This document shows positions 3,350 to 46,993 of a stretch of 64,000 bases of DNA, piece after piece. The stretch comes from Candidatus Saccharimonadales bacterium. Its GTDB lineage: Bacteria > Patescibacteriota > Saccharimonadia > UBA4664 > SCTI01. Every line of letters starts with the position of its first letter. Position 1 is the first letter of the stretch. The notes beneath the pieces are model-generated. The model did not search any database, was not told the origin of the DNA, and saw only the letters and a list, made by a program, of their open reading frames with translations. The position numbers and the translations under genes were made by a program. The DNA is taken from positions 15,668-79,667 of the forward strand of contig DATIII010000004.1 of the NCBI GenBank assembly GCA_035479795.1. Direction: 5' to 3'.

Positions 3350-3479
3350 CTTTGGTCAGCACAAGCGCTATATTCCAAAATTAACATTACTAACATAGCT
3401 GCCTTTGGTATTTACACTAATGCCGCCTAGGGGGTTTAAAGCGATACTTAGGGCACATAAAAACTAAGGGGTGCAGCCA

Positions 3480-3653
3480 ATGAGCAATTCACGCGGCAGA
3501 AAATTTAAGGCTCTAGGACAGGATCGGTACGATGCTGATGTGTTCTACATGAGTTTGGAGGAAGCCAAAAACTTCATAGCCGACAAATACGAATTTCTCG
3601 CCGAGCGCATAGAGCGCCAAAAACCAAAACAGATCAAGCCCAACCGAGGGTAA
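3480..3653 (+). CDS. Small hypothetical protein (57 aa)
   Basis: AAGGGG Shine-Dalgarno 9 nt upstream of ATG 3480; followed by a strong terminator. Confidence 0.4.
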   Translation: MSNSRGRKFKALGQDRYDADVFYMSLEEAKNFIADKYEFLAERIERQKPKQIKPNRG

Positions 3654-3719: not shown

Positions 3720-3796
3720 GCCGAAGTAGCTCAGCTGGCCAGAGCAATGCTTTCGTAAAGCAGAGGTCGCGGGTTCAAATCCCGCCTTCGGCTCCA
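3720..3796 (+). tRNA. tRNA-Thr (anticodon CGT)
   Basis: Acceptor GCCGAAG/CTTCGGC, D-arm GCTCAGCTGGCCAGAGC, anticodon loop TTCGTAA, T-loop GGTTCAAATCC, encoded CCA. Confidence 0.9.
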
Positions 3797-3798
3797 TT

Positions 3799-3872
3799 GC
3801 GGGTATAGTTCATCGGTAGAACGCGACCTTCCCAAGGTTGAGAGAGGGGTTCGATTCCCCTTACCCGCTCCA
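3799..3872 (+). tRNA. tRNA-Gly (anticodon CCC)
   Basis: Acceptor GCGGGTA/TACCCGC, anticodon loop TTCCCAA, T-loop GGTTCGATTCC, CCA encoded; only 2 nt after tRNA-Thr. Confidence 0.9.
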
Positions 3873-18655: not shown

Positions 18656-18732
18656 GGATCCTTAGCTCAGTTGGCTAGAGCACTTCATTGACGTTGAAGG
18701 GGTCAGAGGTTCGAGTCCTCTAGGATCCACCA
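18656..18732 (+). tRNA. tRNA-Val (anticodon GAC)
   Basis: GGATCCT/AGGATCC acceptor, anticodon loop TTGACGT, T-loop GGTTCGAGTCC, CCA encoded. Confidence 0.9.
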
Positions 18733-18845
18733 TTTTAAAAAGACGAATTTTAGAACCAAGCGAAGCTGTTCGGAAATTCGACAGGAACAGCGATGTGGAA
18801 GCTGAAGCAATGAGATTGCGTAAGCTGGAAGTGCCGCTGTGACGA

Positions 18846-18922
18846 GGATCTGTAGCTCAGTTGGTTAGAGCGCTTGATTCACATTCAAGAGGTCACAGGT
18901 TCGAGTCCTGTCAGATCCACCA
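18846..18922 (+). tRNA. tRNA-Val (anticodon CAC)
   Basis: GGATCTG/CAGATCC acceptor, anticodon loop TTCACAT, CCA encoded. Confidence 0.9.
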
Positions 18923-33008: not shown

Positions 33009-33384
33009 GCTAAGGCTGCTGGATGGCTGCTCGCCAGAGGCGAGAGGAAAGTCCGGACAGCACAGAGTAAGGACGGTTGCTAACGGCAACCGGGACCAGG
33101 GAATGTGTTTCTCTCGAGAAAACATAGGCCCAAAGCCTAGGGAAAGTGCCACAGAAACGATACCGCTCACCATTTTGTGAGTAAGGGTGAAACGAGCAGG
33201 GTAAGAGCCTGCAGCCCCTCCGGGTGACCGGCGGGGGAGGTAAACCCCGTCTGCTGCAAGGCTGCTGGCAATCAGAGAGTACTCGCTCCTGCCAGCGTTC
33301 GCGCCGCACGACCCCGACGGTGACGTCGGGGCTAGATAGATGGCCATCCAATCCGCCAGCTGGCGGAGGGACAGAATCCGGCTT
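33009..33384 (+). ncRNA. rnpB: RNase P RNA (bacterial type A)
   Basis: P1 helix GCTAAGGCTGC (33009-19) pairs with GCAGCCTTAGC (33370-80). Conserved GAGGAAAGTCCGG, ACAGAAACGATACCGC and GGGTGAAACGAGCAGGGTAAGAGC blocks. Overlapping track ORFs are spurious. Confidence 0.85.
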
Positions 33385-33477
33385 ATAGGCAGCCTTAGCT
33401 TAGAATAATTATCCTTCCCGAGGGGAGGGTTTTTATTTTTCAACCTGATAAAATAGTTATGTAAAAAGTGTGAGTTT

Positions 33478-39527: not shown

Positions 39528-40991
39528 TTATAGTTTTGGGCGGTACTGTAGGGCTTCGGCGATGTGATTCGGGACGATGGAGGGAGCTTTATCAAGAGCC
39601 GCGATTGTGCGCGCAATCTTTAATACTTTGACATGGGCGCGGGTTGAAAGTTGCAGCCGCCGAACAGCTTCTTTAAGTAGGGAATTGGCTTCTTCTTGGA
39701 CGGAGGCTTCGGGGTTTTGGAACAAGTATTCTTGGGCAATAGCCACCCGCTTGGCGACCCTTACTGTCGGTTCGGCTGGATCGCCGTCGAGTAGCTCGGG
39801 TGCAATTCGACTGACATTGACTCGCATATCAATGCGATCGAGGAGCGGGCCGGATACTCTCTGTCCATATCGGACGATTTGAGCTTGAGTGCAGGTACAG
39901 TCACGAGCGATATCGCCGGCAAAACCACAGGGGCAAGGGTTTTGGGTGGCGATCATCATGAACTTAGCCGGGTAGGTGACGGCTCCTGCGGCGCGAGCGA
40001 TGCTGACTTCGCCGTCTTCGAGCGGCTGACGCAGTGAATCGAGCACATGGCGCGGAAACTCAGGCAGCTCGTCGAGAAACAGGACACCATTGTGACTCAG
40101 GCTGACTTCGCCTGGTCGGGGATGACGGCCACCTCCGATTAAGGCGATACTCGAAGCGGTGTGATGCGGGCTGCGGAATGGTCGATGCCATATCGGTTGG
40201 GTGGTTAGTCCAGCTAGGCTGTGGAGCTGTGTAATTTCAAAAACTTGGTCTAAGGTTGGGGGTGGCAGAATCCCGGCTGTAGCCTTGGCCAGCATCGTTT
40301 TGCCGACTCCGGGCGGACCAGACAGCAAAATGTTGTGCCCGCCAGCCGCTGCAATCTCTAGGGCTCGCTTTGCCTCGGGCTGTCCAGCGATGGCGGCGAA
40401 ATCGGGGTAATTTGGTGGCGTTTCAGGCGCCTCAATTCGCCCACAGTACGGACTAATCGGTTCCTCTCCCGCTAGATGGCGATAAACCTGGCGTAGATTC
40501 TTAGCCGGCAAAATCGTCACCCCGTCCGCAATGGCGGCCTCAGGGGCATTTTCTTCTGGTAGAAAGATTTGCTTCAAGCCGTGCGATTTAGCCAGCTGAG
40601 TAAAAGTTAAAGTGCCACGGACTGGCCTCAGGCTGCCGTCCAGCGCTAGCTCGCCGACAAATAGGCTAGCAGTGACAACTTTAACCTGCTCGGTGGCGGC
40701 TAGGATGGCGACAGCAATGCTTAAATCGTAAGCCGTGCCGTCCTTTGGGAGGTCGGCCGGGGCTAAGTTTAAGGTGACTTTCTTGGGCGGCATGACTAGG
40801 CCGCTATTCTTCAGGGCACTACGTACGCGATCACGAGCCTCCTTGACAGCTTCATCGCCTAGGCCGACTACCACGAAGGAAGGGAGGCCATTGGAGATAT
40901 CGCATTCGACATTTATGAGGCGGCCATGAATACCCACGGCGGCAGGTGCATCAACTTTTGCCAACATATCTGTAATTATTCCTTTCTGCAC
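39528..40991 (-). CDS. YifB/ComM-family Mg-chelatase-like AAA+ ATPase
   Basis: Lon-like N-terminal domain, Walker A LLSGPPGVGKTMLA, C-terminal Mg-chelatase subunit ChlI-like region. Confidence 0.8.
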   Translation of the reverse strand: MQKGIITDMLAKVDAPAAVGIHGRLINVECDISNGLPSFVVVGLGDEAVKEARDRVRSALKNSGLVMPPKKVTLNLAPADLPKDGTAYDLSIAVAILAATEQVKVVTASLFVGELALDGSLRPVRGTLTFTQLAKSHGLKQIFLPEENAPEAAIADGVTILPAKNLRQVYRHLAGEEPISPYCGRIEAPETPPNYPDFAAIAGQPEAKRALEIAAAGGHNILLSGPPGVGKTMLAKATAGILPPPTLDQVFEITQLHSLAGLTTQPIWHRPFRSPHHTASSIALIGGGRHPRPGEVSLSHNGVLFLDELPEFPRHVLDSLRQPLEDGEVSIARAAGAVTYPAKFMMIATQNPCPCGFAGDIARDCTCTQAQIVRYGQRVSGPLLDRIDMRVNVSRIAPELLDGDPAEPTVRVAKRVAIAQEYLFQNPEASVQEEANSLLKEAVRRLQLSTRAHVKVLKIARTIAALDKAPSIVPNHIAEALQYRPKL

Positions 40992-41038: not shown

Positions 41039-41878
41039 TTGTTGTCAATGGTTATTTACAAAAATGCGAAGATTTGCTACCCTGGTTTGGTGAACGAGCA
41101 ATTAATAGCCCAAGTTGAAGAGCTAGGCCTGAGTAATAAAGAGGCTCGGGTATATGTTGCCAACCTGATGATTGGCCCGTCTGGTGTGCAGCAGATTGCC
41201 GATGCCAGCGGCATTAAGCGCGTTACCACCTATGTCATTTTGGAATCATTAGTCAGTCTCGGCCTGGTCAGCCAGACCAATCAGGGCAAGAAGACCTTAT
41301 TTAACGCTGAATCACCGGAAAACCTCCGACGCCTTCTTGAGAAGAAGGAGGAGTCGCTGAAGGAACAGAAGTCCCAGTTGGATGAGCTGTTGCCAGAGCT
41401 AAAGAATCTGAGATCTCTACCAAAGGAGGCCCCGACTGTGAAGTTTTACGATGGAGCCGATGCCATCATGAGCATATATCAAGAGCTTCCGGCAATTATC
41501 AAAAAGTACAACGTGAGAGAAAGTATGGGAATAAGTAATCTGGAAAAACTTTATAAATTCTTCCCAGAGATTGACTATGCGAAAGCAAACCCTAGACGAG
41601 TTGAAGCTAAGGTTCATAGTCGATTCATATACACTACACAGGAAGGGCCCGTCTTAAAGGACTCGGATAAAGAGAAGTTACGGGAGTCTAGATTTATTCC
41701 CTCTGCCAAGTTTCCATTTAGCAGCGACATCGGTGTTATTGGCAATTTCATTACCATTCTTTCGCTGGAGGGGGCTAGGCCGACAGGCGTAACTATTGAA
41801 AGTGAATCTATCGCCAAAGATTTTGGAGTTATTTTCGATCTGGCTTGGGAAGCTTCAAAAAAGTATAATCGTAATTAG
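41039..41878 (+). CDS. TrmB-family transcriptional regulator
   Basis: N-terminal HTH LGLSNKEARVYVANLMIGPSGVQQIADASGIKRVTTYVILESLVSLGLV. Confidence 0.6.
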   Translation: MLSMVIYKNAKICYPGLVNEQLIAQVEELGLSNKEARVYVANLMIGPSGVQQIADASGIKRVTTYVILESLVSLGLVSQTNQGKKTLFNAESPENLRRLLEKKEESLKEQKSQLDELLPELKNLRSLPKEAPTVKFYDGADAIMSIYQELPAIIKKYNVRESMGISNLEKLYKFFPEIDYAKANPRRVEAKVHSRFIYTTQEGPVLKDSDKEKLRESRFIPSAKFPFSSDIGVIGNFITILSLEGARPTGVTIESESIAKDFGVIFDLAWEASKKYNRN

Positions 41879-41890
41879 TAATTTTCTCGA

Positions 41891-41919
41891 TTGACTTACG
41901 CATTTATGTAGGGTAATAT
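41891..41919 (+). promoter_or_regulatory. Near-consensus sigma70 promoter
   Basis: TTGACT (41891-96), 17-nt spacer, TAATAT (41914-19). Confidence 0.55.
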
Positions 41920-41925
41920 TGTCCT

Positions 41926-42413
41926 GTTCTTCGGCGCCCGCAGGGACGTGCCGAGGACTGTACCGACAGCAACCAAGGAGAGTCATGTCATGGTCACGCA
42001 CTAGCGTGAAGACCCATGACGCTCCGTCGGAGCCGGCCTCGGGTTAGAGTCCGCTTCGGCGGGCGTCAAAAACTTCTTTCCGGCGGGCAACTTGACGCCC
42101 GCCCGTCCGGATCGAAGACAAGTACCAGGTCTGGCAGTCGACAGCCATTGACCTGAAAACATGGGATAGAGCCGAGGGCGTTGATCCGTCCAGCGGGGAT
42201 CGTCCTCGGCCTACTCCTGACAGACTTCAGTCCCAGCCGTTAAAACTTCGGACCATGGATGGTCCGCTCGTGGTGATCCGCCATCCCTGGATCACACGCA
42301 TGGCGCCGGGCCCGGGCACACAACTCAACCGCTTTCATCGGGCGGTGCGAGGTGCTCGGGCCGCGGCCCAACCCCAGTTTTCGAATCCCGAAAGCTGGGG
42401 ATTCTTTTTTTTA
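41926..42413 (+). ncRNA. Candidate structured noncoding RNA of unknown class (about 490 nt, GC-rich)
   Basis: Bounded by the promoter above and a 12-bp-stem terminator (CCCCAGTTTTCG-aatcc-CGAAAGCTGGGG + T9 at 42372-42413). No M-started ORF of 60 aa or more in any frame. Contains an AAGGAG-led 20-codon ORF and strong alternative hairpins. Confidence 0.4.
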
Positions 42414-42466
42414 GGCTTTCGAATTAAGAATTAGGCTTTCAGCTTTAAGCTTTGGGCTTTCGTCCT
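42405..42466. repeat. GGCTTTC heptamer repeat cluster
   Basis: AGGCTTTCgaattaagaattAGGCTTTCAGCTTTAAGCTTTGGGCTTTCG. Confidence 0.6.
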
Positions 42467-43719
42467 GCCGCGGCGTAGCCTTTTAGAACATTCTCATATA
42501 AATGCTCGAGCTCGTGGGCTTGGTGATCTACCGAGTATTTTGCCGCCAGCTTGATACTGGCCTTGCCCATGGCTTTACGCTTGTCATTATCTTCTAAAAT
42601 CAGGCCAATCTTTTTAGCGAAGTCGCGAGCCGAATTACGAGCAATGTAGCCATTAACTCCATTCTTCACTATTTCGGTAATTTCTTTATCAATCATCACA
42701 ATCGGCAGGCCAGCCGAAGCCGCCTCGTGGATCACCAGACCCTGAGTATCAGTGCGAGAAGGGAAGGCAAATACGTCGGCGCTGGCGTAGGCGGCACCTA
42801 GGCGTTCATGGCTGACATAGCCGGTAAATATAACTCGGTCAGCAATGCCGAGCTCATGTGCCATGGCAGCTAGCTTGCCTTGATGCTCGTGTCGGCCGAC
42901 TAGCAGTACAACCAAATCGGAGTTGGTATGAGCTAGAATGGCGGCTGCCGACAAAAGTAGTTCAATATTCTTTTCACTGCCCAGGCGGCCTGCAAACATT
43001 ACTACTTGATGATGAGGTTTAATGCCAAAACGCTTCTTAAAACTGATGACTCCCTGGTGGGATGTTGTGATTTCATCTACACCAGTCGGCAAAATTCGGA
43101 TTGGTGCCTTAGTGCCCCAGGATTTGAGTTGGCGTTCAATTTTGCGCGATGGGGCAATGATGCGATCACATTGGTTGTGCAGCATAGTGACGCCGCGGAC
43201 GACCATTTTCTTATTCCATTTATCAATATTGCGCTCGGGTTTAATACTGGATATGGCCGATCGTAGGTCGCCAATGCCGCCGCGCGTAATAAAGGGTGCG
43301 AGGATGGATAGGGCAATGGTGCCCGGCAGTACCTGTGGGTAGTGTGAAACATATTCATAAAGATCGGTATGGTAGGTGGCCATGAGCGGTACATTGTTGC
43401 GCAGGGCAAAGTAGGCACCGAGCAGCCCGATCTGGCTCGGTGTATGGAAGTGAATTACATCCAGCTTCTTATTTTTAATCATCTGCAGGGCCTGAGGGGG
43501 GAAGAAGATACTGGTCAGATAGTCGTCGTAGAACAGTCCCTTGACGGCCGGGAAACGGATAATGTTTTTGGTGCGCTCCTTGTAACGGATGCTGGGAGCT
43601 GGTGCGAAGACAAACACCTCGTGTCCCATAGACTCTAGCGCCACTCGGAAAGATTCTATGGAATAGGAAATTCCGTCGAGAGACGGAAGGTAGGAATCGC
43701 TAAACAAGCCGATACGCAT
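42445..43719 (-). CDS. Family-4 (GT-B) glycosyltransferase, possibly glycolipid synthase
   Basis: E-x7-E motif FPSRTDTQGLVIHEAASAGLPIV. Confidence 0.7.
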   Translation of the reverse strand: MRIGLFSDSYLPSLDGISYSIESFRVALESMGHEVFVFAPAPSIRYKERTKNIIRFPAVKGLFYDDYLTSIFFPPQALQMIKNKKLDVIHFHTPSQIGLLGAYFALRNNVPLMATYHTDLYEYVSHYPQVLPGTIALSILAPFITRGGIGDLRSAISSIKPERNIDKWNKKMVVRGVTMLHNQCDRIIAPSRKIERQLKSWGTKAPIRILPTGVDEITTSHQGVISFKKRFGIKPHHQVVMFAGRLGSEKNIELLLSAAAILAHTNSDLVVLLVGRHEHQGKLAAMAHELGIADRVIFTGYVSHERLGAAYASADVFAFPSRTDTQGLVIHEAASAGLPIVMIDKEITEIVKNGVNGYIARNSARDFAKKIGLILEDNDKRKAMGKASIKLAAKYSVDHQAHELEHLYENVLKGYAAAGRKPKA

Positions 43720-46391: not shown

Positions 46392-46879
46392 AATACCTCC
46401 AATTAATGCTTTGATTTTCACAACAAAGCCGGCAGCAACCTACCACCAAGATCGAAAAAATCTGTCATTGGCGGGCATGATTTTTTGTTAGTTCGGCGCA
46501 CCCTTATGCTTTATTTCTTATCTGTAAAATGGTATTCTTTCCAAGCTGCATCGAGTATACTTTCATGCAGTTTGGACTAGGGGCTGACAAGCTTCGACGA
46601 TTGGACTTTTACAACTCGCGCCAGCAAGCCGCAGCCATGCGTTAATTGCACCAATCAACAAATCAGAACTTTGTTGCTCGGGTAAAGAGTCTGTTTCAGG
46701 CTCCCACGCTCGTACCTGCTTACGCTTAAGTAAGCCATCGGTACCTGACTCCAGATGGGGGTTCACCGGTGTCATTTATCTGGATGCTGCCGGCGGGACG
46801 CCAGACCCGCGGGTTTAAGACAGTTGGCTGCTCTAGTCGTTATTTTGTTTGTTTCAAGACGACTAGCTAAGCTTTAAAA

Positions 46880-46993
46880 CGAACTAAGCTTGTAGAAGGA
46901 CGAGAGGTAACCATTCGGACCGGGGTGCAATTCCCCGCAGCTCCACCAAAAGGGCGCCAGTAGCAACTGGTGCTTTTTTGTTATGATGAAGCC
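46880..46993 (+). promoter_or_regulatory. Structured 5' leader with terminator-like hairpin directly upstream of the hydrolase gene (candidate riboswitch or attenuator)
   Basis: CGGGGtgcaattCCCCG hairpin, then GCGCCAGTagcaaACTGGTGCTTTTTT ending 25 nt before ATG 46994. Confidence 0.3.

Follow-up and report, generated by a model that had tools for sequence, protein, structure and literature searches.

The RNA described here lies in a 64-kb stretch of DNA (the window) from a metagenome-assembled genome of Saccharimonadales (Saccharibacteria/TM7, Candidate Phyla Radiation). It occupies a gap between the gene of a TrmB-type winged-helix regulator (41039-41878, plus strand) and the convergent gene of a family-4 glycosyltransferase (42445-43719, minus strand), and this gap was left unannotated by gene callers on both public contigs (2/2). 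The next gene being convergent, no gene follows the RNA on its own strand, as an earlier reading of the letters alone (the sequence-only reading) had noted. The nearest homologues of the TrmB-like gene are annotated as Candidatus Saccharimonadales, and a protein identical to the glycosyltransferase is encoded on contig CAZQMU010000002.1 of GCA_964594805.1. The RNA is read as a member of an undescribed family of independently transcribed, highly structured Saccharimonadia RNAs whose 5' end may engage ribosomes. Our confidence in this reading as a whole is evenly balanced, and the part of it that posits a conserved family of structured non-coding RNA is very probable.

Transcript, fold and search for known families

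All features of the RNA given below lie on the plus strand of the window. A sigma-70-type promoter spans 41891-41919 and begins 13 nt past the stop codon of the TrmB-like gene, with a -35 element TTGACT (41891-41896), a 17-nt spacer, and a -10 element TAATAT (41914-41919), exactly where the sequence-only reading had placed it. The predicted transcript of about 487 nt (41926-42412) would start about 7 nt past the -10 element and end with the T-run of an intrinsic terminator (42372-42412). This terminator is composed of a 12-pair stem (42372-42400) with an AAUCC loop, followed by AUUC and eight U residues (T-run at 42405-42412). The stem had been described correctly, but the run is one T shorter than the nine reported. 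The site scan found no terminator between the TrmB-like stop codon (41878) and the RNA, and because no other terminator lies between that gene and this site, the terminator of the RNA probably also ends the TrmB-like mRNA. Promoter-like and terminator-like sites were not enriched in the local 2.5 kb, with 4 and 2 sites found and 3.2 and 2.7 expected from shuffled sequence, respectively. One promoter-like site was found on the strand opposite to the RNA.

The guanine-plus-cytosine (GC) content inside the segment reached 0.59-0.635 (about 61%) compared to 0.39-0.46 in the immediate flanks; the segment is thus GC-rich as claimed, but the contrast is larger than the 62 versus 50% first reported. 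The longest open reading frames (ORFs) overlapping the segment measured 59 amino acids on the plus and 53 on the minus strand, in line with the absence of any ORF of at least 60 amino acids. Dinucleotide shuffles of the segment folded at -187.9 +/- 6.6 kcal/mol, whereas its own predicted fold had a minimum free energy (MFE) of -245.7 kcal/mol (z = -8.76), a value that none of 100 shuffles attained. The discrete, strongly structured, non-protein-coding transcript that had been proposed is supported.

The window and 27 related loci were scanned with the 4227 models of Rfam 15. At the gathering score no match was found in 41891-42413, and at E <= 10 with permissive filters only chance-level matches to microRNA and long non-coding RNA models appeared at the window RNA. 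In 18 of the related loci, matches at the gathering score were limited to transfer-messenger RNA (tmRNA), located elsewhere than in the RNA slot, while nine further loci scanned at E <= 5 gave scattered weak matches to unrelated families, none of them common between loci. The scan bears out the earlier impression that the RNA shows no recognisable hallmarks of tmRNA, signal recognition particle (SRP) RNA, RNase P RNA or 6S RNA. No Rfam family exists for it, and we rate it as a new family which resembles orphan structured RNAs and ORF-bearing small RNAs and has, in addition, an unusual mini-ORF module with solid statistics. Structured RNAs of Saccharibacteria are not mentioned in two genome-survey papers of the Breaker laboratory or in a TM7x transcriptome preprint. 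In TM7x, the model Saccharibacterium, no small RNAs have been validated (2022 transcriptome preprint, 10.1101/2022.03.25.485537).

A protein encoded in the segment was searched for by six-frame, stop-to-stop blastp, all against all among the related regions. No frame was conserved at the amino acid level across loci. The matches obtained were confined to pairs already alignable as DNA and hopped between frames and strands, which we take as the signature of non-coding sequence. In GC-rich members, spurious open frames of 105-142 amino acids occur at L008 4909-5226, L006 5006-5434, and L007 4921-5328 (loci are cited by L numbers); they could be annotated as hypothetical proteins, and none is conserved.

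Syntenic relatives and the ribosome-binding-site-like module

Of the loci with TrmB-like orthologues that were collected, 30 came from one-genome-per-species contigs, 37 from metagenomes, and 8 from exact-protein look-ups. The RNA recurs at this position in about 35 related genomes, and 33 non-redundant Saccharimonadia RNAs remained after the removal of duplicates. They are located directly 3' of the TrmB orthologue, run from promoter to terminator, measure 275-816 nt, have a GC content of 0.53-0.67, and contain no credible ORFs. At the corresponding position, 24 of 30 genome or assembly loci and 12 metagenome loci carry a TTGAC-type -35 element, a spacer of 17-19 nt, and a TAnnnT -10 element. 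The window shows the same layout, with its own TTGAC-17-TAnnnT promoter and intrinsic terminator 3' of the TrmB-like orthologue. A strong fold is predicted for every one of the 33 RNAs; their z scores had a median of -6.0, and 31 of them fell below -3. The RNA stays with the TrmB-like gene even where the downstream gene differs. Apart from L014, each of the 28 related loci with a callable next ORF has a convergent neighbour downstream.

In the 5' region, 27 of the 33 RNAs have a purine-rich tract directly 5' of an AUG, at 50-160 nt from the predicted 5' end. A start codon was assigned by a rule blind to ORF length, which takes the AUG within the first 200 nt that has the most purine-rich 16 nt upstream. 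The AUG so chosen opened an ORF of 3-4 codons in 17 of 27 RNAs, compared to 8.9% of the remaining AUGs of these RNAs (binomial P = 5e-12). The encoded peptides vary freely (MGN, MGG, MSQ, MVH, MST, MNT, MLT, and others). A further AUG overlaps or abuts the stop of this mini-ORF (as AUGA, UGAUG, or UAAUG) in 12 of 23 cases against a background of 14.8% for stop triplets (P = 3e-5). It opens a second ORF whose sequence is not conserved and which ends within the following hairpin; eleven of these ORFs measure 9-28 codons, and that of L008 has 82. Both the mini-ORF (MNS* and MNA*) and the AUGA overlap are kept in L038 and L077, which are 67% identical.

In the window, a Shine-Dalgarno-like AAGGAG (41975-41980) is located inside the purine-rich tract and is followed by AGUC and the AUG at 41985. 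This AUG opens a 20-codon ORF, MSWSRTSVKTHDAPSEPASG (41985-42047), as the sequence-only reading had observed. It ends with UAG at 42045-42047, inside the apical loop GGGUUAGAG of a hairpin described below, and is equivalent to the variable second ORF of the relatives. A second AUG at 41990 opens the mini-ORF AUG GUC ACG CAC UAG (MVTH*, 41990-42004), so that here, too, a purine-rich AUG opens an ORF of 3-4 codons. Two AUGs 4-5 nt apart, the second of which gives the 3-4-codon ORF, occur in the window, L004, L033, and L029. The 20-residue peptide had been taken for the peptide of the element, yet it is conserved neither in sequence nor in length, and the conserved feature is instead the 3-4-codon mini-ORF. 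A search of both strands of 477 kb for the combination of promoter, purine-rich AUG, and 3-4-codon ORF found it at 17 loci of the family and at a single other site. The sole match outside the family slot lies on the minus strand of L029 (about 3931-3820), 5' of the TrmB-like gene, with an ORF of 4 codons.

Across members, ORF lengths range from 3 to 43 codons. The module is ribosome-binding-site-like, constrained in the length of its ORF and not in the sequence. Judged from the sequences of the relatives, the mini-ORF appears to be under selection for length rather than for its codons, and that it is actually translated is somewhat more likely than not.

Helices, covariation and the switch question

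The 5'-terminal hairpin P1 (GUUCUUCGGCGCCC...GGGACGUGCCGAGGAC, 41926-41958) was predicted in the MFE fold and recovered in an alignment with relatives. When the window and six relatives were aligned with MAFFT, 89% of the P1 cells were paired, and the covariation score of 0.575 exceeded that of shuffles (0.333 +/- 0.047). None of 500 shuffles reached this score, and controls with slid partners stayed at or below 0.30. The covariation supports P1. It is followed by a small hairpin, CUGU-ACCG-ACAG (41958-41969), predicted in the MFE fold only.

Further downstream, a P5-like hairpin (CCGUCGGAGC...GCUUCGGCGG, 42024-42062) appears in the MFE fold and includes CCGC-UUCG-GCGG at 42051-42062, which follows the stop codon of the 20-codon ORF after 3 nt and not after 2 nt as stated before. 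Its apical CCUCGGGUUAG is also found in L038. Helix S (42058-42103) is the perfect 12-bp helix that the sequence-only reading had picked out, in which GGCGGGCGTCAA (42058-42069) pairs with TTGACGCCCGCC (42092-42103) around a loop starting with AAAACUUC; it belongs to a module found again in nine relatives. Trimmed sequences aligned with MAFFT served as the seed for a covariance model of this module (R1), comprising the 12-bp helix and the following AAACUUC loop. R1 matched the window at 42058-42129 (E = 8e-6), without a second copy in the 64 kb, and it also matched L033, L044, L035, L039, L007, L010, L048, and L036 at the equivalent place. Each of the matched loci has a perfect helix of 9-12 bp, and their distal sequences differ. 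The helix S region of the window is 93% identical to L033 over 30 nt. Pairing of helix S strands with their own partners gave 10.6 bp against 7.4 bp with swapped partners, which is only mildly supportive.

The P7 hairpin (GCCGAGGGCG...CGUCCUCGGC) has its arms at 42171-42180 and 42201-42210. The corresponding helix GCCGGG...CCCGGC was aligned in 10 RNAs, including L075, L038, and L077 of the other subgroup, and the window shows an exchange of G-C to A-U. The other subgroup is marked by a P5 hairpin, CCCUGCC...GGCAGGG. A model of this P5 (R2) recovered the hairpin where expected in 16 RNAs, of which L035, L039, and L005 were outside the seed, and gave only 2 weak off-target matches in 376 kb. 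The P5 core was 83% paired compared to 32-56% with slid partners. Between P7 and the terminator, a long GC-rich hairpin (GCGCCGGGCCCGGGCAC...GUGCUCGGGCCGCGGC, 42237-42371) forms the 3' domain, which the window has in common with L035 (72% identity over 180 nt). Compensatory pairs accounted for 8 of the 46 predicted pairs in this comparison, 21 of 210 between L007 and L010, and 11 of 118 between L038 and L077.

A possible pseudoknot (42073-42117) would pair the loop CUUC...CCGG (42073-42083) with CCGG...GAAG (42107-42117) 3' of helix S. The potential of the loop CUUC to pair with a 3' GAAG was read by eye in the window and nine relatives, and the extensions of this pairing differ between loci. 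Helix S beside CUU[C/G] followed by GAAG occurred in 8 of 33 RNAs, whereas 40 shuffles gave 1.4 on average and never more than 5. A pseudoknot common to the whole family is too weak to claim, two grammar searches having scarcely exceeded shuffles.

From the variability of the 3' half, it seems that a conserved 5' core has been extended differently in different lineages. In the versions of about 800 nt (L007 5160-5560 and its equivalent in L010), a linker RCUUCA(C)AA occurs at least five times between successive GC-rich hairpins, which suggests a repeated binding site for protein or RNA in this lineage only. The ACUUC or CUUCACAAA linkers repeated in L007 and L010 had suggested a protein sponge; this idea was dropped, as ACUUC proved only weakly enriched family-wide (25 occurrences against 15.2, z = 2.9). 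A CsrA-like GGAUG site was considered as well, and with one site per RNA the family is not a CsrB-like array.

Competition between the UUCG hairpin and helix S had been put forward as a translation-sensing switch. The two do use 42058-42062 in common, and for this reason the competition is real, but on paper only. Helix S can be seen to overlap P5 or the UUCG hairpin in the window RNA and, by reading, in L033, L035, L039, and L044, but the overlap is not universal. In a modified form the switch idea is plausible for the subgroup of the window. The companion proposal of a leader-peptide element did not hold, given that a same-strand downstream gene is missing in the window and in the 28 related loci except L014. 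A classical leader-peptide attenuator is accordingly excluded, even though a short ORF with its own ribosome-binding site is present, because there is no gene downstream to regulate.

Interpretation, rival explanations and known systems

In the architecture seen across the family, a strong promoter is followed by the 5' hairpin; the module of purine-rich Shine-Dalgarno tract, AUG, and mini-ORF, usually with the overlapping start of the second ORF; GC-rich helices, among them a helix or possible pseudoknot module in the subgroup of the window; lineage-specific 3' hairpins; and the terminator. In the proposed mechanism, ribosomes loading at the 5' module would reach a stop after 3-4 codons and leave the body of the RNA unmelted, and the early stop would be selected since it keeps the functional fold intact. 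Occupancy of the 5' end by ribosomes may protect the RNA in the manner of the Shine-Dalgarno-type 5' stabilisers of Gram-positive bacteria. A role as such a stabiliser or gate is offered tentatively, as possible and short of probable. The fraction of ribosomes that enters the second ORF would melt P5, which in the window would free 42053-42062 and favour helix S, so that translation activity would be read out in the RNA fold, and the peptides made would be of no consequence.

An extension of this proposal, which we regard as speculative and rather unlikely, is an abundant, trans-acting "translation-state sensor" RNA, in which the partitioning of ribosomes between two ORFs would set the fold of the RNA itself and thereby alter its activity or stability. 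On one path, ribosomes would finish the 3-4-codon ORF short of the structure; on the other, they would follow the overlapping ORF of 9-28 codons into P5. The inputs might be the activity of the ribosome, of release factors, or of peptidyl-tRNA hydrolase. If true, such a sensor would suit ultra-small epibiotic bacteria with few protein regulators. We know of no described RNA class that has this logic and lacks a cis-regulated gene.

A number of results speak against the reading of a ribosome-engaging family. The nhmmer search with the window RNA gave no matches in the 30 syntenic loci, and homology therefore had to be followed by way of synteny and modules. For the family as a whole it rests on conserved position and a common architecture, since only a few pairs of members can be aligned in sequence. 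The RNA is absent from the TrmB loci L017, L022, L025, L027, L028, and L032. The first ORF is longer, at 6-43 codons, in about a quarter of the members. In the alignment derived from R1, 56% of the helix S cells were paired, equal to controls, with poor registration of the seed. R2, the P5 model of the relatives, does not match the window, and the equivalence of its P5-like hairpin is for this reason an inferred one; P5 itself shows little covariation, having too few sequence changes. Generic pseudoknot grammar searches yielded 41.0 against 35.7 and 54.3 against 41.3 in shuffles, with inconsistent picks. Sequestration of the Shine-Dalgarno tract by a downstream pyrimidine strand scored 15.3 against a null of 14.2 across the family; it appears in several MFE folds and is no commoner than chance.

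The strongest rival, which we still consider doubtful, is a purely structural and untranslated RNA acting as scaffold, decoy, or ribozyme, in which the purine tract, AUG, and stop are parts of a hairpin or of a protein-binding site. In many members the MFE fold does put AUG and stop within one hairpin, the word GAUGGG is enriched (z = 4.7), and the peptides are unconserved. A hairpin alone, however, does not explain the in-frame stop at 3-4 codons in 63% of cases (P = 5e-12), the second start abutting the stop (P = 3e-5), or the consistently purine-rich upstream tract with GGAG-type cores at Shine-Dalgarno distance. Action in cis is improbable, be it as a structured 3' untranslated region (UTR) or terminator of the TrmB-like mRNA or by antisense read-through into the glycosyltransferase gene. 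The missing terminator between the TrmB-like stop codon and the RNA fits it, as does the constant attachment to that gene despite differing downstream genes. The same variation of the downstream gene leaves no common antisense target, and about 35 loci carry their own near-consensus promoter, with a strong terminator ahead of the convergent gene. A Shine-Dalgarno tract and mini-ORF would moreover be needless in a 3' UTR.

Both remaining rivals are highly improbable. One holds that the RNA is the mRNA of a small peptide with a long structured tail, be it the 20-residue product or a type I toxin-like or signalling peptide, and can point to the Shine-Dalgarno tract with its AUG and to ORFs of 37-43 codons in the same slot of L043, L059, and L062. 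Against it, peptide lengths range from 3 to 43 codons without sequence conservation in any frame, and more than 85% of the transcript would be untranslated yet structurally constrained. The window peptide is neither hydrophobic nor basic; the peptides MVTH and MSWSRTSVKTHDAPSEPASG both lack the hydrophobicity of type I toxins, and NCBIfam and Pfam are silent on the longer variants. A peptide product is excluded because conservation is lacking. The other rival is a very divergent housekeeping RNA (6S or SRP) missed by the Rfam models in this phylum, and RNAs of the Candidate Phyla Radiation are indeed often divergent, with 6S RNA commonly unannotated there. The window RNA, however, had nothing beyond chance-level Rfam matches even at E <= 10 and nine relatives had nothing consistent at E <= 5, while RNase P RNA and tmRNA were recognised normally in the same window. 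Lengths of 275-816 nt, two ends that do not pair with each other as those of 6S RNA do, and the lack of an SRP helix-8 motif point in the same direction, and neither 6S nor SRP RNA has a Shine-Dalgarno tract with a mini-ORF.

In L043 (about 3419-3532), L059 (about 3401-3532), and L062, whose sequence equals that of L059, the promoter and Shine-Dalgarno tract are kept and followed by an ORF of 37-43 codons (MASTTT...AARKG and MMSTTG...AARKN) and a short tail. The 37- and 43-residue variants had no match in NCBIfam and Pfam. They could be a small basic protein that replaced the RNA or was derived from it.

The proposed ribosome-engaging family can be compared with dual-function small RNAs, stabilising Shine-Dalgarno sequences (STAB-SD), leader attenuators, bar minigenes, and large orphan RNAs. 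Like the dual-function small RNAs (Staphylococcus RNAIII/hld, E. coli SgrS/SgrT, and B. subtilis SR1/SR1P), it is a highly structured, independent promoter-to-terminator unit of a few hundred nucleotides with a Shine-Dalgarno tract and short ORF embedded in the RNA. The peptides of those RNAs are conserved and 26-43 amino acids long, whereas the ORF of the window family has 3-4 codons and is free in sequence; the window RNA also has no known base-pairing target and no similarity to them in sequence or model (Rfam negative). STAB-SD of cryIIIA and the ermC leader have in common with it a strong Shine-Dalgarno-like tract in the first 50-160 nt and, as proposed for the family, the principle that ribosome binding, and not the product, matters. 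STAB-SD itself is without start codon or ORF, and a stability effect in the window family is only proposed; in the erm and cat leaders, control is exerted on a resistance gene further downstream, and no such gene is present at the window RNA.

The trp, pheA, erm, and cat leaders and toiL-topAI also place tiny ORFs beside alternative helices, and the stop of the window ORF falls in a hairpin whose 3' arm overlaps another helix. Unlike these attenuators, the window RNA has neither a regulated gene downstream on the same strand nor regulatory codon runs, and its terminator lies about 370 nt away, outside the alternative helices. OLE, GOLLD, ROOL, and raiA resemble the family in being longer than 300 nt, GC-rich relative to the genome, rich in helices, lineage-restricted, and orphan in function. 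In contrast to the window family, they have no conserved Shine-Dalgarno tract with a mini-ORF, no model match connects them to it, and its 3' half is unusually variable (275-816 nt in total). The bar minigene of phage lambda (AUG AUA UGA) comes close in its Shine-Dalgarno tract followed by an ORF of 2-4 codons, where translation and not the peptide acts. Bar minigenes, however, are short elements of phage origin whose toxicity shows under limiting peptidyl-tRNA hydrolase, whereas the window mini-ORF heads a large conserved chromosomal RNA and its codons are not fixed.

Saccharibacteria and other bacteria of the Candidate Phyla Radiation have tiny genomes and few regulators. An RNA of 0.3-0.8 kb that is conserved, strongly promoted, and kept at a fixed locus across the class may be a major housekeeping or regulatory RNA of the lineage that has so far gone unrecognised, and a mini-ORF apparently selected for its length and not its sequence is a testable case of translation used beyond the making of protein. 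The RNAs also provide a new seed family for Rfam-type annotation, covering about 500 nt per genome that gene callers now leave blank or fill with spurious ORFs.

The neighbouring TrmB-like protein was considered as an RNA-binding partner of the RNA and set aside for want of evidence, its profile match covering the N-terminal winged helix only. A gene of a ComM/YifB-type Mg-chelatase-like ATPase (39528-40991, minus strand) is divergent to the TrmB-like gene and is found in the same place in related loci. Rfam recognises the housekeeping RNAs of this genome normally, with a bacterial class A RNase P RNA (241 bits) at 33011-33401 and a tmRNA (92 bits) at 46580-46948. The tmRNA is located 2.6-4.7 kb 3' of the TrmB stop codon in the window, L005, L009, and L023, in loose synteny, and comes after one small gene in L025 and L028, both without the structured RNA. 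Seven tRNA genes were counted in the window (e.g., at 3720-3869 and 18656-18919). Just past the terminator, at 42414-42465, GGCTTTC is repeated three to four times (AGGCTTTCGAATTAAGAATTAGGCTTTCAGCTTTAAGCTTTGGGCTTTCG), and the repeats reach into the convergent glycosyltransferase gene at its 3' end.

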